Shown here one piece after another: positions 8,227 through 48,221 of a DNA stretch of 64,000 nt (position 1 is its first letter; every line of letters starts with the position of its first letter). The stretch lies in assembly GCA_031400935.1 (NCBI GenBank), contig JANNQV010000025.1:1-64000 (forward strand), in the 5' to 3' direction. The notes beneath the pieces were generated by a model, which made no database searches, was not told where the DNA came from, and saw only the letters and a program-made list of their open reading frames with translations. This DNA comes from Armatimonadota bacterium. Lineage in GTDB: Bacteria > Armatimonadota > Fimbriimonadia > Fimbriimonadales > Fimbriimonadaceae. Position numbers and translations under genes: made by a program.

Positions 8227-9279
8227 CTACGGATAGAACTGCCATTCAATCTCGTCGCAACGCTCAGTCCAACCGTCAATGTCACTAACATCTGCTGTTG
8301 GAACCCAGAACAGTTGTGCTCTGCTTTGTCCGGTAGTGGAATTTATATAGTTGGCAACATTTGTCGTAATGTCGATATTCAAGATCGCATCCGCGATTGT
8401 GGTGATTCTGTTCGCAATGTTGTTGAAACTTGACGTCGAATAGTTGTAAGCACGAAGAAACTCTATAAGGTCGTTCCTTGAAGCCGCAGTTTCACGCCGA
8501 ATTCTGATTTTCGATGGACTGTTAAGGGCTACAGGCAACGTCGAGGGTCGAGTTGTCGCCATTGTCAGTGTTGCATTGGCATCAAATTCGTCATTGAGAA
8601 TGAAAACTGGATCATTGTCGCTCAAGTGAAGAGAGCCAAGGGTTCCACCAAAATCTAGACCAGTATCAATCGTATATGAGGTAGCGTCAGTTGAAAGGAA
8701 ACTGAGTGCAGATACATTGTCAATTCCGACTGTCGCTGCTGCTCCTTCTCCTCCAGAGCTTGGCGGATCAAAGTCGTTGCGAATTTGCAAAAAACTGTTG
8801 GCTGCGAAAGTGGCAGCTAATGTATCTGTGCCCCAAACGAGAACCATGTTTGATGCTCGCAAGAAATACGTTGCGGTTACCCACCCGCTGTTTCCCGGAA
8901 GCGAGAAGCCAGGGTGAGTCACCCATCTTGCTCCTGTTGGGCCGTTAAACATGAGACGCATGTTGAGGGGAACAGCCGAAAAGTTCTTAATGTCCATCCG
9001 GACAATCGTGACTCCAGCCGAAGTGTAGTTCCCGCTCCATTGAAGATTGTTGTTCACTGCAGGTACCGATCCAGTTCCAAATCCACCAAGGCCTGTGAAT
9101 TGCAAGTAAGCATCTGTAGCACCTGCAGGACCACCCGAAGCGATGTTTACGGGATTCGCTCCACCTGACCAAAATAAAGTTGTCCCGTCTGTAAAGGTGT
9201 CAACCTGGCCCAAAACAACTTGTGCGTTGGCAGTCAAAGAAGTTATTACAAATGCAAAAAAAATAAAAATTCGTTTCAT
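8227..9279 (-). CDS. Secreted hypothetical protein, paralog of the 34040..35590 product (shared C-terminal module)
   Basis: Signal peptide MKRIFIFFAFVITSLTANAQ. The C-terminal roughly 140 aa aligns with the 34040..35590 product (SRNDLIEFLRAYNYSTSSF / SRNDITEFWQFRNYATSSW; LFWVPTADVSDIDGWT / YLWVPQADVSNIDGWT). Confidence 0.6.
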   Translation of the reverse strand: MKRIFIFFAFVITSLTANAQVVLGQVDTFTDGTTLFWSGGANPVNIASGGPAGATDAYLQFTGLGGFGTGSVPAVNNNLQWSGNYTSAGVTIVRMDIKNFSAVPLNMRLMFNGPTGARWVTHPGFSLPGNSGWVTATYFLRASNMVLVWGTDTLAATFAANSFLQIRNDFDPPSSGGEGAAATVGIDNVSALSFLSTDATSYTIDTGLDFGGTLGSLHLSDNDPVFILNDEFDANATLTMATTRPSTLPVALNSPSKIRIRRETAASRNDLIEFLRAYNYSTSSFNNIANRITTIADAILNIDITTNVANYINSTTGQSRAQLFWVPTADVSDIDGWTERCDEIEWQFYP

Positions 9280-14364: not shown

Positions 14365-14410
14365 TTTTGGCACGCGAATAAAGGCTCGACGCACACCAAA
14401 TGCAATTGAA

Positions 14411-15757
14411 CTAGAACCGTGCGTCAAACGCAAGACCGATCAGAACTGGCAGGGTTGGCGTTTGCTGACTGCCGCCGCCTATACTACCGGTGCCGCCTCT
14501 TCGAATTCGATAGAAGACTTGCCATCCAAATTCTTGAATTGGAATTCGGTTGGATCGAAAATCGCCCAAAGTCGCTGCAAGAGAATCTGCAAATACTCCT
14601 CGTTCCTTGCCGTTTCGAGTGTAGGATTGAACGGTTGCTCCTGGAATTGTGCTCTGCATTTGTGCGATATTTCCGTTCATCGGAACTTCCGCTCCAAAGT
14701 ATCTGCCATTTACAACTGGACGATTTGCTTGAAAGAAGGCAAAAATCCTCGCTCCCTTTGCCGAAAACATTGCGTAGATTTCTTTCTTTGCAACCATTGA
14801 GCTACTATCCGTTGCCGACTCCGTGTCAACTCCGGCTATGAAATCCTTTCCGTCAAGGTTGGCTCCAACTCCTGAAAAGAAGATAAAGACAGTTGCGTCT
14901 TCAGAAACTCGATCCGCCATCGCTTTTACGCTTGCCCGAATCTGTTGTGCCGTCGCATTTATGACCAGGTCAATGTTTTGTTCGCCATATCCCGCGTTCG
15001 CCATTAGGGACTCTCGGACGTGTTGAGCATCGTCGGCTCCCGAAGCAATTTTCAAAGATTCTAATTTGGATTCGGAATTCCCAATGATTAACGCGTATTT
15101 GTTTGAATTTATTGGAACTCGAATCCCAGAGTTGCTGAGCATTGGGGCATTGCCAGTTGAACTTGGTGTTCCCCCCGCGTTAGGATCAACCGTTGGAATT
15201 CCCGGCTGGTTGATGTCTCGACCCGTCATTTGAGCGACCAGCGAGATTTCCTCCGGCGACATTGGTTCGACATCCACTTTCCAAGTGAGTTGGCCTGATA
15301 CTTGAGTCAGCTTCTCTTCGAGTTGAATGCGCTTTGCGTTATTGTCGCCCTGTGCATAAATGGCGTTGAGAACAAAAAACGTTTCGTAGCTGTTCTGCTG
15401 TTTTGCCAAGAGTGCTTCAAGTTCAGTAGCCGCTTCAGCAAAAGCCTTGTTTCTGGCGGTCGCGTCCTTTTCTGCGGAACCCAATTTGAAGGCAGAATAA
15501 GCAGCGAGGAAATTTGGGGAATAGGGAACACCGTTTCGCCAGACTCTTCGTTCAGTTGCAGGTCCTGGCAAGATTGTTGCCTTGCTGAAGTCTTCTGTCC
15601 GGTAGGCAATAGCTTGTTTAAATGCTGTTCGGGCGCTTGCCCAATCGCCCTTTTTTGCGCTTGCAAGTCCAGTGTCGTAGCTTGACATCCAGCTTTGCGC
15701 TGGAGCAATTGCGGCCGCGCAAACGAGGCCGACCATCCATGAAATTCGTACATGCAT
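14411..15757 (-). CDS. Secreted caspase/CHAT-like (peptidase C14 fold) protein with an N-terminal TPR-like helical region; probably non-catalytic
   Basis: Signal peptide. Caspase-like core YALIIGNSESKL...ATVFIFFSGVGANLDG...FAFFQANRP, in which the His position (SGHG) reads SGVG and the Cys position (QACRG/DSCHSG) reads QANRP. Confidence 0.6.
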   Translation of the reverse strand: MHVRISWMVGLVCAAAIAPAQSWMSSYDTGLASAKKGDWASARTAFKQAIAYRTEDFSKATILPGPATERRVWRNGVPYSPNFLAAYSAFKLGSAEKDATARNKAFAEAATELEALLAKQQNSYETFFVLNAIYAQGDNNAKRIQLEEKLTQVSGQLTWKVDVEPMSPEEISLVAQMTGRDINQPGIPTVDPNAGGTPSSTGNAPMLSNSGIRVPINSNKYALIIGNSESKLESLKIASGADDAQHVRESLMANAGYGEQNIDLVINATAQQIRASVKAMADRVSEDATVFIFFSGVGANLDGKDFIAGVDTESATDSSSMVAKKEIYAMFSAKGARIFAFFQANRPVVNGRYFGAEVPMNGNIAQMQSTIPGATVQSYTRNGKERGVFADSLAATLGDFRSNRIPIQEFGWQVFYRIRRGGTGSIGGGSQQTPTLPVLIGLAFDARF

Positions 15758-15781
15758 TCGAATATATTCCTCTTACTTAAT

Positions 15782-16897
15782 TTAGAATCGAATTCCAAAG
15801 GTAAACGCTGTGTCCTTTGCGCCCGAGTCTGCGTTTCCAAACGCAATGTCAATGATCCAATTCTTAGCAGTCGGCCGGTATCCAATTCCGTAGGTGAATA
15901 CATTTCGATCGCTGAAATTCACACCCCCAGCAGGAACTACGGAATATCCAACCCTGATTGGAATTGTGAACGATTCTTTAGAATAGTGATATTCCATTCC
16001 GATGTGGCCAGCCGTATGTGAATCCTGCATAACACGTTCGCTGGATTCAGTGCTGAAAAAGTGCTCGATTTCGAGTCCGTAGACCATAAAATCGCTTCCT
16101 CCGCGATATCCATCTTGTCGTACGGCCAAGCTAACGGCAGCCCTGCCTGGAATTTTGGAATAAAGCGTTCCGGCGTCTTGCGGATCTTGGATTTCGATTG
16201 GAGTACGAACACTTGCACCGATTGTGAGATTAGATTTGCCCCTTGGGGTGAGAATAATTCCTGCAATTGCTCCAACGCCAAATCCTTCATCTTCAGAACG
16301 AGCGTCGCTTGTGGGAATATTCGGGTCAGTAAAGACAATTCTCTGCCGATTGTAGACAGAATTCATCGCTACGACCACTCCGAGACCGAAGCTAAAGCTT
16401 TGATCTTCAGAGGCCCTCCCCCAAGCCAGATTAAGAAAACTTGTGTTGATTCGAATTGAATCAAGATATTGCGATATGCCGCCAGGCAGGTTACTGCCGA
16501 ACTGATCATCGTGCATTGCACCGCCAACAGTCCAGCTAATACCAATGCCGCCTTTCCCCTTCCCGAGAGGCTTCGCATAGCCCACGTGTGAAAGACGAAT
16601 GTCGCCCGTAAAATCAAATGATTCTAAGCGCAAATCGTTTAGCGGCCCAGTCACTACTGTTTTCGTGTCGGGGAACGATCTACTCGCAACTGCTGCGATG
16701 GGCTGACTCACATATCCTAGGCCAGCTGGATTATAGTGTGCTGACAACGTGTCGGCTGAAGAACCATAAAGAGAGCCACCTGCTCCGAATGCTCGGCCAC
16801 CGGCATCAAACGAAGTAAGTAAATCTGGGACTTGCGCATAGGCAGAGCCTGCGACAAATGCCATTCCAATGCTAAAGAGCTTCCTTGCAACTAACAT
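15782..16897 (-). CDS. Outer-membrane beta-barrel protein (FadL/PorV-like)
   Basis: Start chosen at MLVARKLFSIGMAFVAGSAYAQ (signal peptide). Alternating beta-strand pattern and a C-terminal aromatic residue (..FTFGIRF). 17-bp gap to the upstream gene. Confidence 0.5.
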   Translation of the reverse strand: MLVARKLFSIGMAFVAGSAYAQVPDLLTSFDAGGRAFGAGGSLYGSSADTLSAHYNPAGLGYVSQPIAAVASRSFPDTKTVVTGPLNDLRLESFDFTGDIRLSHVGYAKPLGKGKGGIGISWTVGGAMHDDQFGSNLPGGISQYLDSIRINTSFLNLAWGRASEDQSFSFGLGVVVAMNSVYNRQRIVFTDPNIPTSDARSEDEGFGVGAIAGIILTPRGKSNLTIGASVRTPIEIQDPQDAGTLYSKIPGRAAVSLAVRQDGYRGGSDFMVYGLEIEHFFSTESSERVMQDSHTAGHIGMEYHYSKESFTIPIRVGYSVVPAGGVNFSDRNVFTYGIGYRPTAKNWIIDIAFGNADSGAKDTAFTFGIRF

Positions 16898-16913
16898 ATT
16901 ATTCTCCGTAATT

Positions 16914-17888
16914 CTACCGGTACCTAACGAGAACTTCTTGAGGGACTCCAGAATTTCCAGCTTTATCAATGATCGTGACAACGATCTTGAATTCTTTTGG
17001 CAATCCATTTCTCCACCGAAGGCGTCCCGTCCATCGGTTTGTGGTTCCGTTGATATTTCTAAACGTTCGAAGCGAAATACGGCCAATATAGGCGCCACCA
17101 GTAGTTCGGGCTACTACATCAACGCCTGAAACATCAACTGAGTTTCCTGCTCCATCAACTATGTCAACGGCAACAGAGACATTCGCTCTCGCCGCCAACC
17201 GAATATCAGTTCTAGGTTGAAGGATGATTGCGGTCGGATTGATCCTATCCACAATGACTTCAAAACTTCGAACTTCCTCGTTGTCGGCCTGATCTCTTAG
17301 TCGGATATTGATGGTTTTAGAGCCATCGAACTCGATTCCAGATGTATCCCAAATGACCGTAAATTCATCGTTGATGAGAACAGTGCCCGTGTTATTTGGA
17401 ATGTCTTGCCCGCCAACTTGAACTCGATAATCCTTAAAATTGGGCTCAAGAACTTTTACTCGAACTGAAACACTGCCTCGCACAAACGTATTTGTAATTG
17501 GGTTGAATTGCAAGAATTTGGGCTTGGTTACATCTAAGATTACGTTGACTGTAACGGGTATGTAGGTTTGACCGGGCTCTGTTACAGTAACGACGATTGC
17601 GTAGCTTCCTTCCGGTACTCCCTGATTAAAGTTCAGCGTAAGCGTACCGTTAATCGGATTCACGCCATCAGGGGTGAAATCATCGCTAACCGTGAACTGG
17701 CCGCCTGGGCCTGTCGCAACAGCCTCAACATGGACTTCGATGGTTGCCCCTGTAATGTTGAACCTGATCGTATTCGATAATCCAATAAATGAGCTTTCAG
17801 TTGGCGAAGTGACAGTCAAAGTCTGCGCAGTAGAAACCACGGATAGTGAAGCCATCAGCCCGAATAGGCAAAAAATCTTGCGTAACAT
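16914..17888 (-). CDS. Secreted protein with repeated Ig-like domains
   Basis: Signal peptide MLRKIFCLFGLMASLSVVSTAQ followed by three beta-sandwich-like repeats (TVTxP..., VxVxDxAGN). Confidence 0.5.
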   Translation of the reverse strand: MLRKIFCLFGLMASLSVVSTAQTLTVTSPTESSFIGLSNTIRFNITGATIEVHVEAVATGPGGQFTVSDDFTPDGVNPINGTLTLNFNQGVPEGSYAIVVTVTEPGQTYIPVTVNVILDVTKPKFLQFNPITNTFVRGSVSVRVKVLEPNFKDYRVQVGGQDIPNNTGTVLINDEFTVIWDTSGIEFDGSKTINIRLRDQADNEEVRSFEVIVDRINPTAIILQPRTDIRLAARANVSVAVDIVDGAGNSVDVSGVDVVARTTGGAYIGRISLRTFRNINGTTNRWTGRLRWRNGLPKEFKIVVTIIDKAGNSGVPQEVLVRYR

Positions 17889-18414
17889 TATGTGTCCTCG
17901 TATTTTCCTTTACGTTCGCTCGAATCTATATTGTAGGGTATTTGACTGGCTTTCGTCAACAACGTGCCCAGTTTGTACCTGATTCGCTTTGTTTGACTTC
18001 AACTTACTCAGCTGCGTTCGGTATTTAAGGCAAATTCACCGTGTATCAGCTTGGATTTAACCTAAATAGACGAAGTTCAAGCCCAAATTGATGCGAAGCA
18101 ATTCAAGAACTTGCTTGAATTTTTCTAATTTGGAAACTCACCCTCTAGCAATTGTTCGAATAATCCCGATAATCAGTGTCGGGGAAGAATTGAGAAAATG
18201 GTGTTGACAATTTTTTTGCTTAACCTAGCCAATAGAATGGATGTTCTCCGCTCTCTGTTCTCTGAATCGAAACCGCCACAACTGTTCAAATGTAAGTGGA
18301 AAGTGCTTCCTATGCTTGATTTTGCTGCGATGGCTCTTAAATTCGCCCCGAATGTCCGATACGCAATCGGATTCACCAGTACATTAATTTTGGAACACAA
18401 AGCAATCCGGCAAT

Positions 18415-19326
18415 ATGTTGTCTCGAATACCGCAAAATGTGAGGAGAGTTGTTTTAGTGGCCTTTGACGATCCAGAATTGAATAATATCCGTGGGAAAAT
18501 TGCTCGCGCGATCCAAGAACTCCCTGCGCTTCCGGTTGTTGTTACAAAGGTTCTCGAAGTAACCCAACGAGAAACGGTATCTGCAACAGAGATCGAGCGC
18601 CTTATAGGTTCAGATCCAGCGATTGCTACTAAAACCCTACGCATTGTCAATTCTGCTTATTACGGTATGTCCAAACAAATTGGAAGTTTGAGCCAAGCCG
18701 TTGTGATCTTGGGTGTGCAGCAGCTTAGAAATTTGGTGCTAAGTATAAGTGCAATGTCATTGTTCAAAGCTCAATCCGTTTCGGCAAGGGATGCGCATCA
18801 CAAATTTTGGCTGCATTCAATTGCTTCTGCATCGGCAGGGTTGACCTTAGCGCGAAAGAGGGGCCTACCATCGCACGAGCAGGAAGTCGCTTTTGTCGGT
18901 GGACTTCTTCATGATGTCGGTCGCTTGTTTCTTTTTACAAATTTTACAGAAACGTATCTGGAAATTGATCGCCGTTTTCGAGAAGGAGAGGTCCTCGAAG
19001 ACCTTGAAATGAGTTTGCTGGGGCTCACACATGCTCAGGTTGGGCAAGTTTTGGCGCAAGTTTGGCATTTTCCCGAACCACTTTCCGAATTGATGGGATC
19101 GCATAACGGCCCGTTCAACTCGGAGACTGACACGCTCTTGTTGACAATGCATGTAGCTCACCTTCTAGCTGATCAAGTGTTGTTCGATCCGAACGCACTC
19201 AGTAGGCTCGATCCCTTTGCTTCTCAATGGCTTGACGGATTTGACGAGGAAGTATTGCAAATTCAAATTGAGGTTGAAGCAAGAGTTGACTCTTTCGAAA
19301 AGATCTACGGGCTGCTTGCAGCATAA
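18415..19326 (+). CDS. HDOD domain protein
   Basis: HDOD signature region (SAYYGMSKQIGSLSQAVVILGVQQLRNLVLSISA ... GGLLHDVGRLFL). Directly upstream of fliD. Confidence 0.7.
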   Translation: MLSRIPQNVRRVVLVAFDDPELNNIRGKIARAIQELPALPVVVTKVLEVTQRETVSATEIERLIGSDPAIATKTLRIVNSAYYGMSKQIGSLSQAVVILGVQQLRNLVLSISAMSLFKAQSVSARDAHHKFWLHSIASASAGLTLARKRGLPSHEQEVAFVGGLLHDVGRLFLFTNFTETYLEIDRRFREGEVLEDLEMSLLGLTHAQVGQVLAQVWHFPEPLSELMGSHNGPFNSETDTLLLTMHVAHLLADQVLFDPNALSRLDPFASQWLDGFDEEVLQIQIEVEARVDSFEKIYGLLAA

Positions 19327-19392
19327 CAAGCAACTTCTTTATGTAGAGAGCTGGTTGAGATCAGCCGATAACTACAGGAGAGTAGGTAAATC

Positions 19393-21672
19393 ATGGGCGT
19401 TGGATCAAGCTTAAGCGGCGTAACATTTAGCGGAATTGGTAGCGGAATTGACACAGAGTCAATCATTTCGCGTTTGATGGCGCTTGAACAGATTCCAATA
19501 AATCGCCTTCAGGTTCAAAGACAGCAACTAGAGGGAAGAAAAGCTGCGTTGGCAGCCTTTCGAGAACGAGTCGCAGCTGTTTCTTCAGCCGGAGCAGCAC
19601 TCAACTCTTCATCAGCATTCAATCCAGTTTCAGCTGCATCGTCAAATGCTGCGACCGCAACGGTTAGTGCAAGTTCGGGAGCAGTTTCAGGAACCTACAA
19701 CCTAGCCGTCTCAAAACTCGCTCAATCGCACAAAATTGCAAGTTCAGCTCAAGCCGATTTGACTACAGCACTAAATGTCTCGGGTCGAGTGATGCTGAAT
19801 GGTCGAATGGTTTCAATAGAAGTCACCGATACATTGACATCCGTTGCCCAAAAAATTAACAGCTCTCAGTCTGGAGTTACTGCAAGTATCATTAACGGCG
19901 GGGCGGGACAAGCATATCTAACGCTGTCGTCGGCTACTTCGGGTGCAAACGGGAAGATTCAAATTTCCGACCTCTCAGGATCAGTCGCATCATCTTTGGG
20001 ATTCACAACTGGTGCAGCCTCCATTCGTGAAGCCGTAACTAATGGCGCAGCGAGCAGCACATTCTCTGCTTCAACAACTGCAATTGGGACTCTGTTGGGT
20101 GTCACTGATTTGACTTCAACTACGGTCAACATAAACGGTACCGATATCTCTTTGAATCTGCAAACGCAATCCCTTCAAGACATTGCAAATACGATTTCGG
20201 CCTCAGCTGCCGGAGTGACAGCTAGTGTCAAAGCGGTAACAGCAAACGGAACAACCCGGCATAGAATCGAAATTGTCGGGAATTCTGGCACACCGACATT
20301 TGTTGATCCCAATGGAACACTTGAGTCATTAGGATTTCTCCAAAAGGGGTTCGGCAGCCAGCTTCTTGCTGCTCAAAACGCTGCATTTACAATTGACGGC
20401 ATGACCTTTTCAAATGCGTCAAACACGGTCACGACCGTAATTCCTGGTGTCACCTTAACTCTTCTCAAAGCGAATGAAACGACTCCAGAAACGTCAACGA
20501 TCAACTTGAGTCAAGACAATACGGCTGTAAAGACGAAAATCAAAGACTTCATGATCACTTATAACAATTTGGTTGACTTTGTTAAAGCAAATTCTGCGTT
20601 TGATAAGGAGAATTTTGATTCTGGCCTTCTTTTTGGAGATGCAACCGTTCAATCTGTAGAGTCGGCATTGTCTCAGACGATGTTCAATACTGTCCAAGGC
20701 TTGGCAACTTCCTATTCAAATATGGGTCAACTTGGCTTCACATTTGATACGGATAGCAAGCTAAAACTTGATGAATCAATTCTTGACACGGTTTTGAACT
20801 CAAATCCGGAAGCTGTAGGCAATGTGTTTCGTACTACAGGAGCCGGTTCAACCGAGTCGCTTCAATTTGTTTCGAGTACAACAAAGACAAAGATAACGGG
20901 CAGCGGAAGTTACTCAGTCAATATCTCGCAGTTAGCTACCAAAGGCTATCATAGGGCTGCAATAGCTCAAACAAGTGTAAACGCAGCTGTCGAAACTCTA
21001 ACTTTCAATGGTGCGTCCCTAGGCAATACGGCTTATTCGTTGACAGTTCCTGCGGGGAACTCCCTTCAGGCAACAATTGACCTAATCAACAACGATTCGA
21101 AGCTAAAAGACATCCTGATAGCAACCAACGACGGTGGATCGCTAAAAGTTGAAGCAAGAAAATTCGGGACTAACGGCAACTTCACCGTTTGGTCCAACCT
21201 TGATGCTGCCGCTGATAATTCAGGAATTGGAAAAGTGGACGGAGTAATTGGAGCGCCAGTTCATTACACTGGTCTGGATACCGCAGGAACAATCAACGGA
21301 GAAACTGCGACGGGCAGCGGCCAATTCCTAACCGGCAGCGTAGGGAACGCGAACACCGAGGGTCTTCAAATTCTTTACACAGGCACCACAACTGGCAACG
21401 TTGGAACTGTCAAGTTTTCGCGAGGTGTTGCCGCCAGTATTCAAGACTTGGTGACTCAATTTACAGACGGTGTTTCAGGCCTGCTAACAGCGAACGACAA
21501 CTCGTTGCAAGCGCAAATCAAGAATATTGATGACACAATCGGGTCTATTCAAGCTCGGACTGTGCTAAAGAACCAAGAGCTTCGTAGGCGATTCTCAGTA
21601 ATGGAGCAATCCATCGCACGATTTCAGCAACAAGCTGGGCAGCTAAACGCGATTTCTTCAGGACTAAGATAG
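19393..21672 (+). CDS. fliD: Flagellar filament cap protein FliD (hook-associated protein 2)
   Basis: FliD N-terminal motif (GIGSGIDTESIISRLMALEQIPINRLQ) and C-terminal coiled coil (LKNQELRRRFSVMEQSIARFQQQAGQLNA). 759 aa. Confidence 0.8.
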   Translation: MGVGSSLSGVTFSGIGSGIDTESIISRLMALEQIPINRLQVQRQQLEGRKAALAAFRERVAAVSSAGAALNSSSAFNPVSAASSNAATATVSASSGAVSGTYNLAVSKLAQSHKIASSAQADLTTALNVSGRVMLNGRMVSIEVTDTLTSVAQKINSSQSGVTASIINGGAGQAYLTLSSATSGANGKIQISDLSGSVASSLGFTTGAASIREAVTNGAASSTFSASTTAIGTLLGVTDLTSTTVNINGTDISLNLQTQSLQDIANTISASAAGVTASVKAVTANGTTRHRIEIVGNSGTPTFVDPNGTLESLGFLQKGFGSQLLAAQNAAFTIDGMTFSNASNTVTTVIPGVTLTLLKANETTPETSTINLSQDNTAVKTKIKDFMITYNNLVDFVKANSAFDKENFDSGLLFGDATVQSVESALSQTMFNTVQGLATSYSNMGQLGFTFDTDSKLKLDESILDTVLNSNPEAVGNVFRTTGAGSTESLQFVSSTTKTKITGSGSYSVNISQLATKGYHRAAIAQTSVNAAVETLTFNGASLGNTAYSLTVPAGNSLQATIDLINNDSKLKDILIATNDGGSLKVEARKFGTNGNFTVWSNLDAAADNSGIGKVDGVIGAPVHYTGLDTAGTINGETATGSGQFLTGSVGNANTEGLQILYTGTTTGNVGTVKFSRGVAASIQDLVTQFTDGVSGLLTANDNSLQAQIKNIDDTIGSIQARTVLKNQELRRRFSVMEQSIARFQQQAGQLNAISSGLR

Positions 21673-27608: not shown

Positions 27609-28364
27609 ATGGTCGCCCTCTTCGCTGTCGCGATTTGCCAGTATGCTTTTTTTCCTTCTGCTCCACTGATCTATTCGGTTGTGATTGAGATGAATGGCAC
27701 ATTGCCCATTTTAGGAGGTAAAGAAGGGAAAGCGACAATTGAGTTCGATATGCGAGTTATCGGTCTTTTGCAGGATGCTGAAAAGCGGTCACAGGCAGAA
27801 TATGAGTTGCTCTCCTTTCGCACGAAAATGAATGGCGCACTACTTCCATTTGGGCTCGCAAGCGTAAAAGACTTCTTTCCGAAATCTATGTTTTCTTATA
27901 GTTCGACTGGTGAAGTGCTTCATACGACGGCTCCCAAGAAGAGCCTTCCAGCTTCAATGCCAGGGCTAGATTCGCAAAAATTACCGGAAACGACTTTCAT
28001 GCCAATAGTGTTTGGGAAAGGCTCTTCGTGGAACTTTGATAGAACTTTCAATGGAACCAAAATCCGATATTCGGCAACCTCAAAGCCCACAACCGAAGCA
28101 ATGGAAGAATGTGTATTTTCAGCATCACAAGCCGTGAAGTCTTGGGAGGATGAGTCAAACCGTCCAATAGCATCAAGGGAAGGTGCTGCTTTTGAAGTGG
28201 GTTCGCAATTGACCGCAAAGGGATTGCTGAGTTTTGATAAAGTTCAGCAATGCTTGATCCGATCGGAAACAACTGTTGAGATTGAAGGCGATGCGAGGCA
28301 CATTGAATCGAAGCAGTTGTTTCATCGGAAGCTGATGCTCAGAATTGTTTGCACCTTGAAATAG
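27609..28364 (+). CDS. Hypothetical protein with an N-terminal hydrophobic segment
   Basis: 251-aa ORF with coding-like composition and no recognisable motifs. Divergent from the kinase gene. Confidence 0.4.
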   Translation: MVALFAVAICQYAFFPSAPLIYSVVIEMNGTLPILGGKEGKATIEFDMRVIGLLQDAEKRSQAEYELLSFRTKMNGALLPFGLASVKDFFPKSMFSYSSTGEVLHTTAPKKSLPASMPGLDSQKLPETTFMPIVFGKGSSWNFDRTFNGTKIRYSATSKPTTEAMEECVFSASQAVKSWEDESNRPIASREGAAFEVGSQLTAKGLLSFDKVQQCLIRSETTVEIEGDARHIESKQLFHRKLMLRIVCTLK

Positions 28365-34039: not shown

Positions 34040-35590
34040 GTGGAGGATGAATTGAAAGTACAAAGCTTAACAATTATTGCTGCTATTGCAGCTGTGACAA
34101 TGGTCTGTGGCAATGCCACGGCTCAAAAGTTTGGCAAACGCAATGTCTTTGGATATTCTGGTTCGACTAGAACCGTGGCAGATTCAAATATTCAACGAGC
34201 ACGTCCGTTGCGATGGGCGCCGATTGACAAGTTTGGCAATCAGATTGGTCCATGGGTTTCCATGGTTCTAGATAACGATTGGCCCAATGGCCCATGGACA
34301 ACGATTTTTGATGCGATTGAGCTAAGTCCAGCAACCCTTGTCCCAGCTGCCCCAAACGGTGCACCGTACGAGAATCCAGGCTACGGACCTGCTTACATGG
34401 TTACGGGGAATTATGGCTTGACGTCTAACACTCCAGGTGCCAGATTTCGAGCTCCAGCCACATTTGAAATGACATTTTGGACCAACGACATGGAAATCAA
34501 TCCGCTTTATGCAGGGTTTGACGCAAATCGTTGCTCTTTCATGTGGTACTGGAACCCTGTTGGAGGTGCAGGTACAGAGGCTTGCATCATAAATATTAAC
34601 AACGCAGAAACGTTTGCTAATACAGCCGTAGGGCTTCCGCCACCTTCTGGACCCAACAACATTTCATGGGGCGGCGCTTTTGACGGCGTTGCGCTCGATT
34701 TTGGAATGACACTTCCAATTGGTGGCTTCTATGCAAATATTGACCTAGACGCAGGACCGACGCCATTAAGTATGGAGCTTCCAGGCGATGGCAAGGGTGC
34801 ATACATCGTAACGGTGAGAAGCGCAGCTACAACGCTGGCTTCTCGTGCACAACCGTACTTCTGGATCACGAAGCAAACAAATTATGGGTTGCCGGGTGGC
34901 AATCCGAGCAAACAAGGCCCATTCGAATGGGATGACGATACCGACATCGCAAGCACGTTGCCATTTCCAGCTGGGTACATAAACAACTCAGACGGGCGAC
35001 ACATGACTGATCCTCCGGGACCAGCGCATTTGGTAGAGTTCTACGATTACACAGGAGCAATCGGCCCTCCGATCATTGAACCTTTGGGACCTGCTTACGG
35101 CCTCTATTCAAATTTCGGGGCTTTTACAGCTACTTCAGAATCTGAACTGACGGTAGATGCTGGACTTCTCTTTGGCGGATCAGCTTCTTCTCTTCGAATA
35201 GCCGGCGATAGTGACATCTTGTACGTCCTCTGTGATGAATTTGATGCGATCGGCACTATTAGGCTAACAAAAGATACTTCAGTAACCACAACGACTGCGA
35301 TTTCGGTGATCGGCTCAACAAAATCAAGCCGAAACGATATTACTGAATTCTGGCAATTTAGAAACTACGCCACAAGCTCGTGGCAAACTGTTGGATTTCG
35401 AAATAGCCCATTAGGATCGTTTGTATCAAACCGAATTGACGCGACCGCAGGCGCAGCGAGTTTCCTGGATGGTAGCGGGGTTCTTCAATTCCGATACCTA
35501 TGGGTTCCTCAAGCAGATGTCAGCAATATTGATGGCTGGACAATGGAAGTGGATAGGTTGACTGTTTTTGTAAAAGGAACGGACGACTAG
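34040..35590 (+). CDS. Secreted hypothetical protein, paralog of the 8227..9279 product (shared C-terminal module)
   Basis: GTG start with a signal peptide. The C-terminal roughly 140 aa aligns to the 8227..9279 product. A structured leader (nested inverted repeats) sits at 33940..34040. Confidence 0.6.
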   Translation: MEDELKVQSLTIIAAIAAVTMVCGNATAQKFGKRNVFGYSGSTRTVADSNIQRARPLRWAPIDKFGNQIGPWVSMVLDNDWPNGPWTTIFDAIELSPATLVPAAPNGAPYENPGYGPAYMVTGNYGLTSNTPGARFRAPATFEMTFWTNDMEINPLYAGFDANRCSFMWYWNPVGGAGTEACIININNAETFANTAVGLPPPSGPNNISWGGAFDGVALDFGMTLPIGGFYANIDLDAGPTPLSMELPGDGKGAYIVTVRSAATTLASRAQPYFWITKQTNYGLPGGNPSKQGPFEWDDDTDIASTLPFPAGYINNSDGRHMTDPPGPAHLVEFYDYTGAIGPPIIEPLGPAYGLYSNFGAFTATSESELTVDAGLLFGGSASSLRIAGDSDILYVLCDEFDAIGTIRLTKDTSVTTTTAISVIGSTKSSRNDITEFWQFRNYATSSWQTVGFRNSPLGSFVSNRIDATAGAASFLDGSGVLQFRYLWVPQADVSNIDGWTMEVDRLTVFVKGTDD

Positions 35591-37212: not shown

Positions 37213-37989
37213 TCAAAACCGGTGTTTAAGTAGCGTCCAAAACGCTTCTGGGGCGTCGGTCCACCGAATCTTCTTCCCTGCCTCTTTTGAGCGCGGATGG
37301 TATTGAATGGGCAATTCCATGATCTTATGCCCGCCTCGAATTGCCTTTGCGGTAACTTCCGGGCAAAACTCGAACCTCATGCAAGTTAGATTCATCCCTT
37401 GAATCACATCGGTTCGAAACGCCTTGTAGCAAGTGGCTTCGTCCTTTACCCTTCGAAAATAAAGAATCGCAACCGCCCACGAAAGCAGGACGTTGACTAC
37501 TTTGTTGGGCAATGCCATGCCAGCAGGGAAGCCGGAGGAAAACCGATTTCCATAAACGACCGTTGCTTCGCCCTTGAGTATCGGCGCGACAATCACTGGA
37601 ATCTGCTCCGGCGCATATTCCAGATCGGCGTCTTGTACGATGGTTGCTTTGCCATTGCAAAAGGGAAGCGCCTTTCGAATCGCCTCGCCTTTTCCCGTTT
37701 TGCTCTCACATTCAACTAGAACGATGCGCTCACCATAGGTTCGAAGTATCTCGCCGGTTCGATCTGTTGAACCCGCATTGACGACTACGACTTGAGTGGA
37801 AATTGGCAATGCAAGGAGGCGATCAACGACTTCGCCGATCGTTGCCTCTTCGTTATATGCGGGCACGACAATGGAAACATCATGAGACCCTCGATCCTTG
37901 CTCCGCTGTGAGGATCGAGGGATCGGTTGCTGGCTCAAGCGAGCACCATAGCTTCTTTGCCCCGGAAATACTCGCCAAGCCGAAGGCAC
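37213..37989 (-). CDS. Family 2 glycosyltransferase (dolichyl-phosphate mannose synthase-like)
   Basis: VSIVVPAYNEE...DAD GT2-A motifs. The annotated start overlaps the carB-C 3' end by 55 bp, so the true start is uncertain. Confidence 0.7.
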   Translation of the reverse strand: MPSAWRVFPGQRSYGARLSQQPIPRSSQRSKDRGSHDVSIVVPAYNEEATIGEVVDRLLALPISTQVVVVNAGSTDRTGEILRTYGERIVLVECESKTGKGEAIRKALPFCNGKATIVQDADLEYAPEQIPVIVAPILKGEATVVYGNRFSSGFPAGMALPNKVVNVLLSWAVAILYFRRVKDEATCYKAFRTDVIQGMNLTCMRFEFCPEVTAKAIRGGHKIMELPIQYHPRSKEAGKKIRWTDAPEAFWTLLKHRF

Positions 37990-39596
37990 GATGATTTGGA
38001 GGGATCGGCAAATATCTCAAGCGCATCTGCCAAAGCTTCAGCGGTGTCAATGCTTGTTATGCAGGCAACACCGATTTCTATGCAAGCCCTTCGGATTTGA
38101 GCTGCTTCGCGTTCGGCTTGCTTGTGAGTGCTAGGCGAATTGATGAGAATGCTGATTTCGCCTTGCATGATTCTGTCAAGAAGATTCGGCGAGCCTTCGC
38201 TGATTTTCATCACCCAAAGGTTTTCGATTCCAGCTTGTATTAGGGCGTCATGCGTTCCGCCAGTGGCGGCAATTTTGTATCCTTGATTGGCGAATGTTCG
38301 TGCAATCTGGACAGCTTTTTCCTTATCGTCATCTTTCACGGAAATGAGAACGTATCCATCGCCTTTGAACTGAATTCCGCTCGCGATCATGGCCTTGTAC
38401 AAAGCGGCGTTGAAGTGGTGGTCAATCCCCATGATCTCGCCTGTTGATTTCATTTCTGGGCCGAGGCTGGGTTCGACTTTTCGGAGTTTTTGGAAGCTGA
38501 ACACGGGTGCCTTGACTGCGAAGAGTACGGGTTCTGGAAGGACAGCTTTTCGTTCAATGAAATCGCTTTCTGGAACAACATAGCCCTTTGCCGATTCACT
38601 GCTAGAGGGTTCCAAGCACCAAAGTCCGCTTTGATAACTAAGGTCTGTAAGCTCTTCTCCCATCATGCAACGAGTTCCGAGGTCTACCATTGGGATTCCG
38701 GTGACTTTGCTGAGAAAGGGCACGGTCCGACTCGCACGCGGATTGACTTCAAGGACGTAGGCAATCTCGTTTTGAATGACAAATTGGATATTCATTAAGC
38801 CTTTGATCTTCAATGCTCGTGCAATTTTGCAAGCACTTTCAATCATTTGGGATTGAACTTCCAAAGTAAGTCCGACGGCTGGATATACTGCCATCGAATC
38901 GCCGCTATGAACTCCCGCGCGCTCAATGTGCTCCATGATTCCAGGAACTAAGGTTGATTCTCCATCGGAAATCACGTCAACTTCAGCTTCAACCCCTAAG
39001 AGGTATTGGTCAACGAGCACCGGTTGCCCTTCGCTTGCGGATTCAGCTTCTCCATAGAATTCGCGCAATTGCGCTTCGTCGTATACAATTTCCATTGCTC
39101 TTCCGCCCAAAACAAAACTTGGGCGAACGAGAACTGGATAGCCAACGCTGTTAGCGATCTCGACTGCTTGACTTAGGGATCGAACGGCTTTTCCTTTCGG
39201 GCGCGGTACGTTCAATTCTTCGAGCAAAGCGTCGAACTGCTCCCGATCTTCTGCCATAGCTATGGATTTGGGTGAAGTGCCGAGAACTCGAACTCCAGCA
39301 TCTTGGAGCGGCTGAGCTAGGTTAATTGCGGTTTGTCCGCCAAACTGGCAAACGACGCCGATGGGCTTCTCATGATTTACAACCTGAAGAACATCTGGCA
39401 GGGTAACAGGTTCAAAATAAAGCCCGTCAGAGGTGTCGAAGTCTGTTGAAACGGTCTCGGGATTATTGTTAATGACGATCGCGCGATAGCCGATCTTTTC
39501 GAGAGCCCAAACGCAATGGACGCAAGAGTAGTCGAATTCAATACCTTGACCGATTCGAATCGGCCCGGAGCCAAGAACAAGAATCGTATCGGGCAT
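37935..39596 (-). CDS. carB: Carbamoyl-phosphate synthase large subunit, C-terminal half (second ATP-grasp plus MGS-like domain)
   Basis: MPDTILVLGSGPIRIGQGIEFDYS matches the start of the second CarB repeat. C-terminal MGS-like domain (GYKIAATGGTHDAL). Complements the separately encoded N-half at 40483..42030. Confidence 0.8.
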   Translation of the reverse strand: MPDTILVLGSGPIRIGQGIEFDYSCVHCVWALEKIGYRAIVINNNPETVSTDFDTSDGLYFEPVTLPDVLQVVNHEKPIGVVCQFGGQTAINLAQPLQDAGVRVLGTSPKSIAMAEDREQFDALLEELNVPRPKGKAVRSLSQAVEIANSVGYPVLVRPSFVLGGRAMEIVYDEAQLREFYGEAESASEGQPVLVDQYLLGVEAEVDVISDGESTLVPGIMEHIERAGVHSGDSMAVYPAVGLTLEVQSQMIESACKIARALKIKGLMNIQFVIQNEIAYVLEVNPRASRTVPFLSKVTGIPMVDLGTRCMMGEELTDLSYQSGLWCLEPSSSESAKGYVVPESDFIERKAVLPEPVLFAVKAPVFSFQKLRKVEPSLGPEMKSTGEIMGIDHHFNAALYKAMIASGIQFKGDGYVLISVKDDDKEKAVQIARTFANQGYKIAATGGTHDALIQAGIENLWVMKISEGSPNLLDRIMQGEISILINSPSTHKQAEREAAQIRRACIEIGVACITSIDTAEALADALEIFADPSKSSCLRLGEYFRGKEAMVLA

Positions 39597-39749
39597 GCAA
39601 GTCCAATTGTGACTCATGCCTTGCTCGCGACGCTTGGATGGCTTGTATGGATTGTATAGATTCTATGGAGGATGCGGAATGCAGAATGCAGATTTGAAGA
39701 GCTACAAAGTTATGAAGCAAGTACTTAGGCAATTCAATCAAATAGCTGT

Positions 39750-40496
39750 CTAATGAAGCTTGACCAACGGGAAGACTTCGACATCAACGCCCTGACAAAA
39801 GATCACGTGCTCAATCTTTCGGTCTGGTAGCCCAATGGATTGGGCCAAGTCTGTTTCGAACCGCTCTAAGGATACGTTGGCTAGTTGGTATGGCTTGTGA
39901 TGAACTTGGCCCAGCATCATTGTTCCGTTTGAAAGTGTATAGAGTTGATATCTTTCAACGAGCCAAAATTCAAATGTTCCAGGTGCAGCCGAATGGAAAT
40001 CGGTCTCGTGGTCATATTTGAGAGTCATCGAAGCATGAGGTTCGTCGAGCCTTCTAATTCTGTAATCAATCGTTTGGCCGCTCAAATGAACTGCCATATC
40101 TGAATGCAAATAATTTAGCCCGAAGAAGTTTTTGGCATACTCACAAGCCAGCCATCTTGAAGCATCGAGTGAAAAGAACCAAACTCCTGGATCCATGCCG
40201 TTTCGATGTACATAGGTTCTAACATTTGTTTCCGGAAATGCGGATAGCCACGGAATTGCTGGCAACCCAGGATATCGAATGCTGTTCATCGTGAAGGCAA
40301 CTATGCCAATCCAAGCTTGCTCGACTCCATTTGCGTCTGGAAATGTGTCAATTTCAAGCTCAAGTGGAACGTGATTTCTCAGCATATCGGGCGAGACAGG
40401 ATAGTGGAGAAAGCATAAGTCTCGCCAAGATTGCAGCATCACTGGCTTCCCAATTGGCCGTGAACGCATTTGCAGATACTTGCTAATCGGCAGCAT
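39750..40496 (-). CDS. DUF2071 (YqjF-like, acetoacetate-decarboxylase-fold) protein
   Basis: 248 aa with length and motifs ([17 protein letters not shown]) consistent with DUF2071. It lies between the two carB halves and overlaps the carB-N 3' end by 14 bp. Confidence 0.6.
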
Positions 40497-42030
40497 CGTT
40501 TTCTTCGCCTACCGTTGCATAGAAGTAGGGGGTGTGTGACTCAAATTCTGCGGCGCATGTGTCAACCATTTTGTAAACTTGATTGGGCTGATGTTCAATG
40601 AGGGTATTGTGTTCATCATCAATTAGGTTCTGAAGTTTAGATAGGAACCACTTGTCAACTTTGCAAAGTTTGTTTACTTCGTCAATGCTCCAACCTCTCC
40701 GAAGGCCTTCTGCGATTGCCCATAGTCGTTCGTCTGTAGGGATTCTGATGGCACTTCTAAGTGCTTCATCCCGCATGGCCTCGAATTTCTCGTGTCTGAG
40801 GTCCTTCTGCTTCACTTCCAAGCCTCGAATAGCCTTCATCAGCGCAGATTCAAAATTCCTGTCAATCGCCATGACCTCACCAGTTGCCTTCATTTGAGTG
40901 AAGAGAGTGCGATCGCCACCAGAGAATTTGTCAAACGGCCAACGGGGGATTTTCACTACACAGTAGTCAAGCGCAGGTTCAAAACACGCCTTTGTTGTTC
41001 GAGTGACCTCGTTTTCAATCTGGTCTAAGGTCTTACCAACGGCAATTTTTGCGGCTACTCGAGCGATTGGGTAGCCGGTCGCCTTAGAAGCGAGGGCTGA
41101 GGATCTTGAAACTCGCGGATTGACTTCGATAATGTAATAGTCAAAGCTGTCTGGATTCAGGGCCATCTGGACGTTGCAGCCACCTTCAATGCCGAGAGAA
41201 TTGATGATTTTCAATGCGGCGGTTCGCATCATGTGGTATTCAAGATCGCTCAATGTTTGGCTTGGCGCAACAACAATCGAATCTCCTGTGTGAACGCCCA
41301 TGGGGTCGAAATTTTCCATGTTGCAAACGGTTATGCAGTTTCCAGCCGAATCGCGCATCACTTCATATTCAATTTCTTTCCAGCCCAAAAGGCTGCGTTC
41401 CACCATGATTTGGCTCTTCATTGAAAGCTTCAAGCCCTTGCAGCCGATTTCCCAAAGCTCTTCGGGAGAGTAGGCAACACCGCCACCCGTTCCTCCCAAA
41501 GTGTAGGCTGGACGAACGATTCGTGGGTATGCAAACTGGATGGGTCGTCCGCTCTCGCTAGGGACTTCAACAGGCAGAATGGCTCGAAGCTGATCTTCGG
41601 TTTCGACGATAAAGCTCTCAGGAACAGGCTCCTTAATTTCGCGCATGAGAGTTCGAAATTCCTCCCTGTCTTCTGCTTTTCGAATTGCCGAAAGAGGTGT
41701 GCCAAGAACACGTACATTGTTTCTCTCAAGAATTCCAGCATCGGATAGCTGGATCGCCAAATTGAGGCCAGTTTGTCCGCCTAAGGTGGGTAAGAGGGCG
41801 TCTGGCTTCTCCCGAATTATCACCCTTTCACAAAAATCAACGGTCAACGGTTCGATGTAAAGAGCATCCGATACTTCCGGATCGGTCATGATCGTTGCTG
41901 GATTTGAATTGATCAGGACGACTTGATGGCCTTCTTCTCGAAGGCTTTTGCAGGCTTGAGTTCCTGCGTAGTCAAATTCGGCGGCTTGTCCGATTACGAT
42001 GGGTCCCGAACCGATAACAAGCACCTTCAT
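40483..42030 (-). CDS. carB: Carbamoyl-phosphate synthase large subunit, N-terminal half (first ATP-grasp plus oligomerisation domain)
   Basis: [52 protein letters not shown] is the canonical CarB N-terminus. 515 aa. It ends after the oligomerisation domain at its own stop codon. Confidence 0.85.
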
Positions 42031-45943: not shown

Positions 45944-46124
45944 AATTCCTCCTATCTAACCGCCGCCCCGGTGGGCGTCACAGATATAGTCCTATTTTAG
46001 CGGCTAATTAGTTCGGATCGTGTGAGCTTTTTTCAAAATACTAGAATTCTTTGCTGAGAACCTTCAAAACCCGGCAAAATTGCCGACGATACCAATAAGG
46101 CCGCAATGTGCCTTGTTTGAATAT

Positions 46125-48221
46125 ATGAAGCAACTTCAGAATCTTCTCAAGCATACAGATCTGCTCTTTGGAGTGGGACTCGTTGTCGTTGTTGCAATTT
46201 TAATTTTGCCATTGCCCCATTGGGCATTGGACATGGGGCTTGTTGTGGCAATTGCATCGGCTGTCATCATCTTGCTCAGCTCGGTAAACGTGACCGATCC
46301 GCTTCAATTTTCTGTTTTCCCTTCGCTCTTGCTCGTTACGACGCTTTTTCGGCTTGCGTTGAGCATCGCCGCAACGAAACTCATTCTGGGTACTGGCCAA
46401 GCCGGGGCTGTCATCGAAACGTTCGGTAACTTCATCATGGGTGGCGACTTTATCGTCGGCGTTGTGGCGTTTCTGATCCTTGTCATTGTTCAATTTATTG
46501 TAATTACCAATGGTGCTGGACGTGTTTCAGAAGTTGTAGCTCGATTTACCTTAGATGCAATGCCAGGCAAGCAGATGGCGATTGACGCCGACCTTGCCGC
46601 AGGCTCGATTGACGAAGACCAAGCCAAGGAACGTCGAGAAAATGTAAAGCGTGAAGCCGATTTCTATGGTGCGATGGACGGCGCATCCAAATTTGTAAAA
46701 GGCGATGCAATCGCTTCGATTCTAATCATCATTATCAATATCATCGGCGGCTTTGCCGTTGGGTTCATGAAGGGCCAAGGCGACGCCTTGACGATCATGA
46801 AGACTTACACAATTCTAAGCGTCGGCGAAGGACTCGTTTCGCAGCTTCCGGCTTTGCTCATTAGTACCGCGAGCGGTTTGCTTGTCACCCGTTCAGGGCA
46901 ACAAAGAAGCATGGGCGCCGAAGTCATCGGCCAAATGCTAGGCCAGCCTAAAGCACTCACTTATGCTGGCGGAGCGCTCGCAGGAATGTCGCTGGTGCCA
47001 GGATTTCCAACGGTCATCTTTCTCATCGCTGCGGCGGGCTGTTTTGGAATCGGGCAGTTTATGGAGAAAACTCCTGGTGCTCGAAAACTCGTTGGTGCGG
47101 AAACTATGGACGAAAAGAAGGCAGACGCAAAGCTAGTGGAAGCCGCGGCAAAGCAAAGCGTTCCGCAGGGACCGGATTCAGTCTTGCCACTGCTTGCCGT
47201 TGATCCCCTAGAAATCGAAATCGGGCACGGCTTGACCAAACTTGCCGATGCCCGGGTTGGCGGAGATATGTCGGAACGGGTTACCTCAACCCGAAAACAG
47301 ATCGCATTAGAACTCGGGTTCGTAATGCCGACCGTTCGAATTCGCGATTCCATTCATTTGAAGAGTACGGAATACGCGATCAAAGTTCGCGGCGAAGAGG
47401 TTGCAAGGGCTGAAATCATCCCGAATATGCACCTTGCCATCTCTAGCGGGGAAGTGTTTGGCTCGGTTCCAGGAATAACTACAAAAGACCCTGTTTTTGG
47501 ACTCGATGCAATATGGATTGACCCAGCCAACCGAGAAACCGCCGAGCGATCTGGATATTCAGTAATCGAGCCTTCAGCGGTCATTACAACTCATTTAGGA
47601 GAAGTTGCCAAGGCCGCGGCATCCGAATTGCTTACAAGGCAAGACGTTTTCAAGCTCATCGAGAACGCGAAATTGCAAAACGAAAGCGCAGTTACCGAAC
47701 TCATTCCAAATGTTCTCACTGTTGGTGATGTGCAAAAAGTCCTTCAGCACCTTCTTCGAGAGCGAGTTCCGATTCGAGACATGGTCACCATTTTGGAAAC
47801 CATGGCAGACTTTGGCACACGCGTCAAAGACCCAGATCAGCTAGGCGAACTCGTTCGCGCAAACGTCGCCCGAACGATTACGCGCCAATTTGTAGACCCC
47901 ACGAACAAGCTTGCCTGCATCACTCTTGACCCAGCCCTTGAAAGAGATTTGGTTGAAAATGTAAACCTGACGAACTTCGGCTCAATGCTTGTCATCACTC
48001 CAGAGCAACAGCGCGACCTCATGGAATCCATCCGCGCAGAGGTTGACCGCGCCAATGTGCAAGGCTTCCATGCCGTTCTTCTTTGCGGAAACCAGCTTCG
48101 CCTTCCTCTCAAGAGGCTGGTTGAAAAGCAGCTTCCAACCCTGGCAGTCATGGCGTACAACGAAGTGGCAGAAACGGCAGAAGTGGAATTCATAGGGCAG
48201 CTAAAAGCCTTCGCGGCGTAA
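46125..48221 (+). CDS. flhA: Flagellar biosynthesis protein FlhA
   Basis: Canonical FlhA motifs (MPGKQMAIDADLAAGSIDEDQAKERRENVKREADFYGAMDGASKFVKGDAIA). The start is chosen at MKQLQNLL. Confidence 0.9.
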   Translation: MKQLQNLLKHTDLLFGVGLVVVVAILILPLPHWALDMGLVVAIASAVIILLSSVNVTDPLQFSVFPSLLLVTTLFRLALSIAATKLILGTGQAGAVIETFGNFIMGGDFIVGVVAFLILVIVQFIVITNGAGRVSEVVARFTLDAMPGKQMAIDADLAAGSIDEDQAKERRENVKREADFYGAMDGASKFVKGDAIASILIIIINIIGGFAVGFMKGQGDALTIMKTYTILSVGEGLVSQLPALLISTASGLLVTRSGQQRSMGAEVIGQMLGQPKALTYAGGALAGMSLVPGFPTVIFLIAAAGCFGIGQFMEKTPGARKLVGAETMDEKKADAKLVEAAAKQSVPQGPDSVLPLLAVDPLEIEIGHGLTKLADARVGGDMSERVTSTRKQIALELGFVMPTVRIRDSIHLKSTEYAIKVRGEEVARAEIIPNMHLAISSGEVFGSVPGITTKDPVFGLDAIWIDPANRETAERSGYSVIEPSAVITTHLGEVAKAAASELLTRQDVFKLIENAKLQNESAVTELIPNVLTVGDVQKVLQHLLRERVPIRDMVTILETMADFGTRVKDPDQLGELVRANVARTITRQFVDPTNKLACITLDPALERDLVENVNLTNFGSMLVITPEQQRDLMESIRAEVDRANVQGFHAVLLCGNQLRLPLKRLVEKQLPTLAVMAYNEVAETAEVEFIGQLKAFAA

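Follow-up and report, generated by a model that had tools for sequence, protein, structure and literature searches.

The stretch analysed here, 64,000 nucleotides from a member of the Armatimonadota (Fimbriimonadales, Fimbriimonadaceae; contig JANNQV010000025.1, positions 1 to 64,000, hereafter the window), contains an operon of three genes that code, in order, for an exported protein with predicted bacterial immunoglobulin-like (Ig-like) domains, an outer-membrane beta-barrel and an exported protein combining a TPR-like helical domain with a caspase fold. Judged from comparison with its orthologues, the third protein has lost both catalytic residues and is unable to cleave by the caspase mechanism, and we hold with high confidence that the entire family to which it belongs consists of pseudo-proteases. 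For the trio as a whole we propose, with about even confidence, that it encodes a non-enzymatic complex of the cell envelope anchored by the barrel.

An exported caspase-like family without the catalytic dyad

The C-terminal domain of the third product matches the Pfam profile Peptidase_C14 (PF00656) over residues 220-401 with an E-value of 3.3e-10 and 40.5 bits against a cut-off of 21.4, and 28 of the 30 family members tested match the same profile. An AlphaFold2 model computed from 30 homologues (predicted local distance difference test, pLDDT, 81) displays a helical domain at amino acids (aa) 22-177, a disordered linker at residues 180-209 with pLDDT below 50, and an alpha/beta domain at residues 220-420 that adopts the caspase-hemoglobinase fold. 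As the Pfam scan recovered no CHAT match in the protein at E <= 1, the domain can be assigned to the C14 type. On profile and model together, the caspase-fold and TPR-like assignments are sound.

The state of the catalytic dyad was assessed by profile and multiple alignments, which revealed that: 1) the two regions expected to hold the catalytic His and Cys read IFFSGVGA and AFFQANRP, with V297 and N345 in the catalytic positions, 48 residues apart. 2) In a MAFFT alignment with five dyad-intact bacterial caspase homologues retrieved by the search of representative proteins (P0380, P0373, P0367, P0361 and P0383), FYFAGHGVQ is paired with IFFSGVGAN and LDACRNNP with FQANRPVV. 3) Alignments based on the hidden Markov model (HMM) of the family place its G-x-G opposite the G-H-G of metacaspase-4, metacaspase-9 and MALT1; with MALT1, gaps surround the Cys motif and the MALT1 Cys falls opposite A344, adjoining N345, and neither of these positions is a conserved Cys. 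4) Among 84 sequences, namely the window protein and 83 orthologues from species-level genomes, position 297 is occupied by 12 kinds of residue (A 32, V 21, N 7, T 6, Q 4 and seven others) and never by His, and position 345 by nine kinds (N 38, P 15, S 12, H 8, R 6 and four others) and never by Cys. 5) The residues framing these positions, G296, G298, N300, F341 and R346, show little or no variation, R346 being invariant. 6) No alignment column in the 84 orthologues reaches 50% His or Cys.

A preliminary description of this locus, made from the letters of the DNA, had called an N-terminal TPR-like region followed by a caspase/CHAT (C14) fold with substitutions at both the His and the Cys motif. 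The helical region and the C14 half of that call are upheld, the CHAT half falls away, and the two substitutions are borne out by profile and multiple alignments alike. A conserved His and Cys elsewhere in the domain, which would speak for an active protease, were sought in the 84 orthologues without success, and the fold is caspase-like by the agreement of the C14 profile with the model.

Loss of the dyad has not been accompanied by decay of the domain. Across the same 21 genomes the median identity to the window protein is 52% for the caspase domain and 47% for the helical domain, compared with 57% for GlmM, 44% for FliD, 43% for GrpE and 33.5% for CoaX, so that the caspase domain is nearly as conserved as GlmM. 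The conservation is concentrated in a few segments: 17 of the 33 positions of the caspase domain that are at least 95% conserved lie in the former catalytic loops (residues 296-309 and 341-370), and 12 of the 20 such positions of the helical half lie in an insert at aa 56-87. This insert and the former active-site loops are the obvious candidates for functional or interaction surfaces.

Some members of the family, 612-714 aa in length (P0254, P0292, P0273 and P0262), match the profile in two stretches flanking the low-complexity linker, and in these members a much longer tether probably joins the TPR-like and caspase domains. In searches of PDB sequences the single third-gene sequence gave only spurious dynactin matches, which we discarded, and the family profile was needed. 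With that profile we observed a weak match (E 0.036) of aa 145-227 (window 15077-15325) to residues 424-509 of Myxococcus PilQ (3jc8); the matching region comprises the end of the helical domain and the linker, with a conserved W-K-V-D-x-E...P-E-E.

A likely origin of the family is indicated by P0380, a protein of 475 aa in which a signal peptide is followed by clear TPRs, a Pro/Thr-rich linker and a C14 domain whose GHG and ACRNN motifs are intact. Its alignment with the third product runs the full length of the domain and takes in the C-terminal Q-x-P...F strand. Where P0380 has FAGHG and DACRNN, the pseudo-caspases have S/A/T-G-x-G and Q/E-x-x-R, and they also carry a 6-residue insert (SNRIPI...GWQ), and the loop that follows the Cys position is shorter in them. 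As both share one architecture, the family looks like an inactivated branch of secreted TPR-caspases. No barrel or Ig-like gene occurs in the neighborhood of P0380, so the linkage to these genes is specific to the dead family. We also considered the conserved C-terminal ...QTPTLPVL...DARF of the pseudo-caspase as a sorting or beta-signal-like motif and rejected this, as its counterpart in active homologues is their terminal Q-x-P...GEFYF strand.

Organization and phyletic spread of the operon

The three open reading frames (ORFs) follow one another head to tail on the minus strand (Table 1), and the preliminary description had placed these co-directional genes correctly, as it had recognized the signal peptides of the first and third products, which can be read directly at their N-termini; the gaps it gave as 17 and 25 bp are in fact 16 nt (16898-16913, between genes 1 and 2) and 24 nt (15758-15781, between genes 2 and 3). 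Both spacers contain a GGAG or AAGAGGAA resembling a ribosome-binding site, and each gene has its own such site. The ORF list extends the barrel gene to an upstream GTG at 17098; we place its start at the ATG at 16897, because this is preceded by a GGAG ribosome-binding site and opens the signal peptide that is kept in orthologues. Each protein starts with a typical Sec signal peptide, the end of which was read by inspection. A search by eye for a lipobox in the N-termini of all three proteins found none, and no Cys of the signal peptides is conserved; lipoprotein anchoring of the first and third products was accordingly rejected.

In all three proteins the first mature residue is a Gln after an A-x-A site (codons 15695-15697 in the pseudo-caspase, 16832-16834 in the barrel and 17823-17825 in the Ig-like protein). 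The pseudo-caspase and barrel families never vary at this Gln (Q21 and Q22, respectively); orthologues of the Ig-like protein often have Gly or Thr in its place. A mature N-terminal Gln recalls the "Q-rule" of the Bacteroidetes, by which such residues become N-terminal pyroglutamate.

On one side the trio is flanked by divergent genes (an HDOD-domain gene and fliD) and on the other by convergent ones (coaX, glmM and grpE), and it therefore forms a self-contained unit. About 40 nt upstream of the first gene a consensus scan detected the promoter-like site TTGACG-18 nt-TACAAT, with 10 of 12 positions matching; promoter-like sites in the region are not more numerous than in shuffled sequence, and this one is a weak candidate for the operon promoter. 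We rejected a mobile element or island, as the GC content stays level (0.46-0.52) and conserved synteny links the locus with housekeeping genes.

Full-length homologues number more than 100 for every one of the three proteins; where named, they come from Fimbriimonadaceae or from metagenome-assembled genomes (MAGs) of Armatimonadota, and public annotation calls them "caspase family protein" or "hypothetical protein". An HMM search of 1.8 billion representative proteins with the pseudo-caspase family recovered 109 clusters (50% identity) at E <= 1e-30, after which scores drop sharply, the next matches, near 1e-23, being generic caspase domains aligned over the first half of the domain only. When one genome was scanned for each GTDB species, 115 loci were obtained; of the 83 examined, 80 bear Armatimonadota-type labels, two bear other labels and one is named only "bacterium". 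The two with other labels, "Methanoregulaceae archaeon" and "Archangium gephyra" (loci L013 and L053), carry the trio at 54% and 44% identity and are probably mis-binned public MAGs.

To gauge linkage, the three window proteins were compared by tblastn with the 83 loci, 66 of which were informative in having at least 2.4 kb of upstream DNA. The order Ig-like, barrel, caspase-like is found in 63 of the 66, which bears out the conservation of the operon in relatives that the preliminary description had put up for checking, and the trio is intact despite different flanks in loci such as L001, L023, L036 and L082. With this retained gene order and the more than 100 full-length homologues of each protein, the trio is not a chance feature, and it is best explained as a vertically inherited operon specific to the Fimbriimonadaceae/Fimbriimonadales of the Armatimonadota. 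Among 48 long loci, a Cof-type HAD hydrolase gene precedes the trio in 25, and a gene for a cytoplasmic protein of 285 aa, with a helix-hairpin-helix-like motif recognized by eye, follows it in 21; both are absent from the window.

The barrel and the Ig-like protein

The second product ends in an aromatic residue and, in an AlphaFold2 model with a predicted TM-score of 0.79, forms a closed barrel, the N-terminal 47 residues being of low confidence; the 14 strands with an N-terminal hatch typical of FadL and TodX are present. The hatch, which is the most conserved part of the protein, holds the invariant residues Q22, P24, D25, D31, G33, G38, G40, S52, N56, P57, A58 and L60. Profile tests with 31 family members yielded matches to the NCBIfam PorV/PorQ model in 30 (best E 7.7e-15), to PorVQ2 in 13, to T9SS_OM_PorV in 11, to Pfam Toluene_X (FadL) in five (counted at E <= 0.01) and to BamG in three, all of them below the curated cut-offs; for the window barrel itself NF033709 reaches 32.7 bits against a cut-off of 90 and PF03349 19.9 bits against 29.7. 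In the best match of the barrel family profile among PDB sequences, the hatch is aligned to the N-terminus of Flavobacterium johnsoniae PorV (6h3i_F, E 0.017). By these profiles the barrel is a member of the FadL superfamily nearest to the PorV/PorQ/BamG branch and is no demonstrable member of any of those families.

The first product itself gives only sub-threshold matches to Big_13 and Big_3 (Big_13 20.8 bits against a cut-off of 27). Most of the at least 120 homologues listed for it carry precomputed PF19077, PF17957 or PF13750 (Big_13, Big_7 and Big_3_3), and its family profile matches a Rib/R28 protein and 2yn3 (deposited as a "putative inner membrane protein") in the PDB at E 0.0014-0.0037. 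The protein probably consists of three tandem beta-sandwich domains with about 100 residues per repeat. The preliminary description thus named both partners of the pseudo-caspase aptly: the FadL/PorV-like barrel is supported by PorV/PorQ profile affinity and the closed-barrel model, and the Ig-like protein by the domains on its homologues and the PDB matches of the family profile.

A putative barrel-anchored envelope complex and its alternatives

The proposed complex would be built in the following manner. All three products would be exported by the Sec pathway and cleaved by signal peptidase I, whereupon the barrel would insert in the outer membrane as an anchor or docking platform. The pseudo-caspase would act as a periplasmic adaptor, with its former substrate groove and the TPR surface or helical insert holding a peptide or protein ligand at the barrel, and the Ig-like protein with its three predicted domains would be a third subunit or a client. 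We favor an adaptor role because the former active-site loops and the helical insert are the most conserved parts of the pseudo-caspase, which may thus serve as the binding scaffold suggested in the preliminary description. [quoted passage not shown] Gene structure, folds, dyad loss, strong purifying selection and the retained order of the genes are established; the contacts among the three proteins, their positions in the envelope, ligand binding by the pseudo-caspase and the role of the complex are all what we infer from these comparisons.

Several observations weigh against such a complex. First, the wider neighborhood is itself syntenic: in the 48 long loci fliD is retained in 38, the HDOD gene in 33 and coaX-glmM-grpE in 35, and therefore gene order alone overstates functional coupling and partly reflects shared ancestry. 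Second, three loci carry the caspase-like gene without the Ig-like and barrel genes. In L031 (7121-9281) and L067 the Ig-like and barrel genes are absent together as one block, leaving the caspase-like gene immediately behind the HAD gene, and in L057 (5799-7145) it is solitary, between a putative transporter ORF and a ThiF/MoeB-like ORF (neighbors named by eye); the caspase-like gene can therefore persist apart from the other two at the locus. Third, in a mirror-tree comparison of the TPR-like, caspase, barrel and Ig-like parts with the neighboring genes, controlled with GlmM, CoaX and GrpE and covering 13 usable taxa, the barrel correlated better with the HDOD protein (0.74) than with its operon partners (0.29-0.51), and the comparison as a whole was uninformative. 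Fourth, the predicted localization comes solely from signal peptides recognized by eye.

The alternative that survives best is that the barrel is an ordinary FadL/TodX channel for hydrophobic molecules, with the exported proteins as periplasmic helpers or unrelated operon mates. We regard this as unlikely, if a serious contender: the profiles favor PorV/PorQ in 30 of 31 members over Toluene_X in five of 31, the tight trio is kept in 63 of 66 loci, and no FadL system dependent on a caspase-fold or Ig-like partner is known to us. The pseudo-caspase could also act on an active caspase homologue from another part of the genome, as its decoy or regulator, forming a heterodimer in the manner of c-FLIP and caspase-8, with the barrel and Ig-like protein incidental. 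This is improbable, as no active C14 paralogue is encoded in the window or in the flanks of the examined loci, the partner of an exported protein must also be periplasmic, and the linkage in the operon is left unexplained. The eukaryotic pseudo-caspases and scaffolding caspase folds, c-FLIP and Raptor, have no sequence relationship to the family beyond the fold and belong to another compartment and domain of life.

A somewhat less probable possibility is that the locus is a relative, relic or precursor of the attachment complex belonging to the T9SS (type IX secretion system), in which the barrel carries a clan CD fold as PorV carries the sortase PorU and the Ig-like protein is cargo. The T9SS attachment complex of Bacteroidota likewise has a PorV/PorQ-like barrel encoded with clan-CD-fold and Ig-fold proteins. 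The trio, however, occurs outside the superphylum of Fibrobacterota, Chlorobiota and Bacteroidota (FCB), and its clan CD protein is of the C14 and not the gingipain type and is catalytically dead. No T9SS sorting domain was detected with NCBIfam on the Ig-like protein or the pseudo-caspase, and no T9SS-type domain was found by Pfam annotation among 20 of the larger ORFs of the window. The trio also differs from BamG-BamH, which is reported only in FCB phyla and in which BamH, a surface lipoprotein, has a carbohydrate-binding fold; the partners in the trio are not lipoproteins, and the barrels match BamG weakly in three of 31 cases. A broader and doubtful extension of the barrel-anchored complex is that PorV/PorQ-type barrels with soluble partners reach beyond the FCB group, the module docked to the barrel in Fimbriimonadaceae being independent or ancestral, with the dead C14 fold as an adaptor where PorU has a catalytic role, and the Ig-like protein displayed or handled at the outer membrane.

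Two further readings are very unlikely. Conservation in the caspase domain peaks in the loops at the old active site, and N300, D305, K324, R346, E357, Q366 and T370 are all at least 95% conserved, which could point to a hydrolase with non-canonical catalytic residues; both canonical positions, however, vary freely, with 12 and nine residues, in motifs that are fixed apart from them, the protein offers no conserved Cys, His or Ser, and to our knowledge no clan CD enzyme works without the His-Cys dyad. Similarly, the divergent fliD and HDOD genes upstream of the trio in the window, with the frequent retention of both in the long loci, could suggest an accessory envelope structure of the flagellum; but coaX-glmM-grpE is equally syntenic on the other side, which indicates general conservation of gene order, six loci (L001, L009, L025, L027, L036 and L050) have the trio without a nearby fliD, and none of the three proteins resembles a known flagellar protein in profile scans. 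A role in defence was rejected, since the pseudo-caspase gave only a generic PADLOC "caspase" match (E 1.6e-8) and its partners none, and since its export and the conserved housekeeping neighborhood count against it.

Other features of the window

The flagellar genes of the window, fliD with its adjoining HDOD-domain gene (18415-21672) and flhA (FHIPEP; 46080-48221), indicate that the organism is probably flagellated. The large subunit of carbamoyl-phosphate synthase appears to be split on the minus strand (37935-42030), its two halves being separated by a further ORF (Table 1). Four ORFs, at 43394-45943 (849 aa), 34040-35590 (516 aa), 8227-9279 (350 aa) and 27609-28364 (251 aa), have no Pfam match at E <= 1e-5.

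Table 1. Features of the operon, its flanks and other parts of the window (window positions unless a locus is named; a slash marks predicted cleavage)
Feature	Position	Strand	Remarks
Gene 1, exported protein with predicted tandem bacterial Ig-like beta-sandwich domains, 324 aa	16914..17888	-	weak Big_13/Big_3_2 matches and domains of homologues
Gene 1, putative signal peptide, aa 1-21	17826-17888	-	cleavage STA/Q
Gene 2, predicted FadL-superfamily outer-membrane beta-barrel, PorV/PorQ-like by sequence, 371 aa	15782..16897	-	ends ...FGIRF
Gene 2, putative signal peptide, aa 1-21	16835-16897	-	cleavage AYA/Q
Gene 2, N-terminal hatch, aa 22-62 (QVPDLL...NPAGLGY)	16712..16834	-	NPA motif; most conserved part of the barrel
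Gene 3, exported TPR-like and pseudo-caspase protein, 448 aa	14411..15757	-	ORF
Gene 3, putative signal peptide, aa 1-20	15698-15757	-	cleavage APA/Q
Gene 3, TPR-like helical domain, aa 22-177	15227..15694	-	N-terminal
Gene 3, conserved insert, aa 56-87	15497..15592	-	D..T.LPG....WR.G.PYSPNF.AAY; inside helical domain
Gene 3, low-complexity linker, aa 178-211	15125..15226	-	length varies across the family; gap-rich in family alignment
Gene 3, caspase (C14, clan CD) fold domain without catalytic dyad, aa 212-448	14414..15124	-	profile, model and alignments
V297 codon, catalytic His position	14867..14869	-	S-G-V-G replaces S/A-G-H-G; codon verified
N345 codon, catalytic Cys position	14723..14725	-	Q-A-N-R-P replaces D-A-C-R-N; codon verified
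Promoter-like site, weak candidate	17930..17959	-	TTGACG-18 nt-TACAAT; upstream of gene 1
Extra flanking genes of relatives (HAD / 285-aa protein)	L001 4032-4841; L031 9320-10177		absent from window 14365-14410 and 17889-18414
Carbamoyl-phosphate synthase large subunit, N-terminal ATP-grasp half	40483-42030	-	
Carbamoyl-phosphate synthase large subunit, second ATP-grasp half and MGS domain	37935-39617	-	
ORF of 248 aa between the synthase halves	39750-40496	-	ORF list

Relationship to known pseudo-proteases and implications

The statement of the preliminary description that such a trio has no described counterpart was too strong, as both pseudo-orthocaspases (PMC6426788) and barrels acting as docks (PMC8545088, PMC12611786) have been described. 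Bacterial pseudo-orthocaspases include proteins with TPRs (the FS dyad type) and others predicted to be exported, and their dyad positions are fixed as pairs such as Tyr-Ser, Tyr-Ala, Phe-Ser or Gln-Cys (Klemencic et al. 2019, PMC6426788). The family described here resembles them, and SyOC of Synechocystis (PMC7889975), in that both dyad residues are replaced and the replacement is fixed in a lineage; a dyad-less variant fixed in a whole lineage implies a non-proteolytic function. It differs from them in that positions 297 and 345 drift freely, none of the YS, YA, FS or QC pairs being fixed, and in its operon partners, since no outer-membrane barrel or Ig-like partner is described for pseudo-orthocaspases in that account, from which the Armatimonadetes are absent (PMC6426788). 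Literature searches combining PorV with Armatimonadota, or Fimbriimonas with caspase and outer membrane, returned nothing, and the searched literature holds no description, outside the FCB group, of a pseudo-caspase associated with both an Ig-like protein and a PorV-like barrel.

The practical value of these observations is modest, in that proteins now annotated as "caspase family protein" could be better annotated as non-peptidase homologues. If the complex is real, the use of FadL-family barrels as docks, the theme of PorV, PorQ and BamG, would extend to a poorly studied and mostly uncultured phylum, and the trio would offer a clear bacterial case of a caspase fold retained in the envelope for binding alone. 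In this family, the drift of the catalytic positions within loops that stay fixed amounts to a natural experiment on what a dead caspase groove binds.

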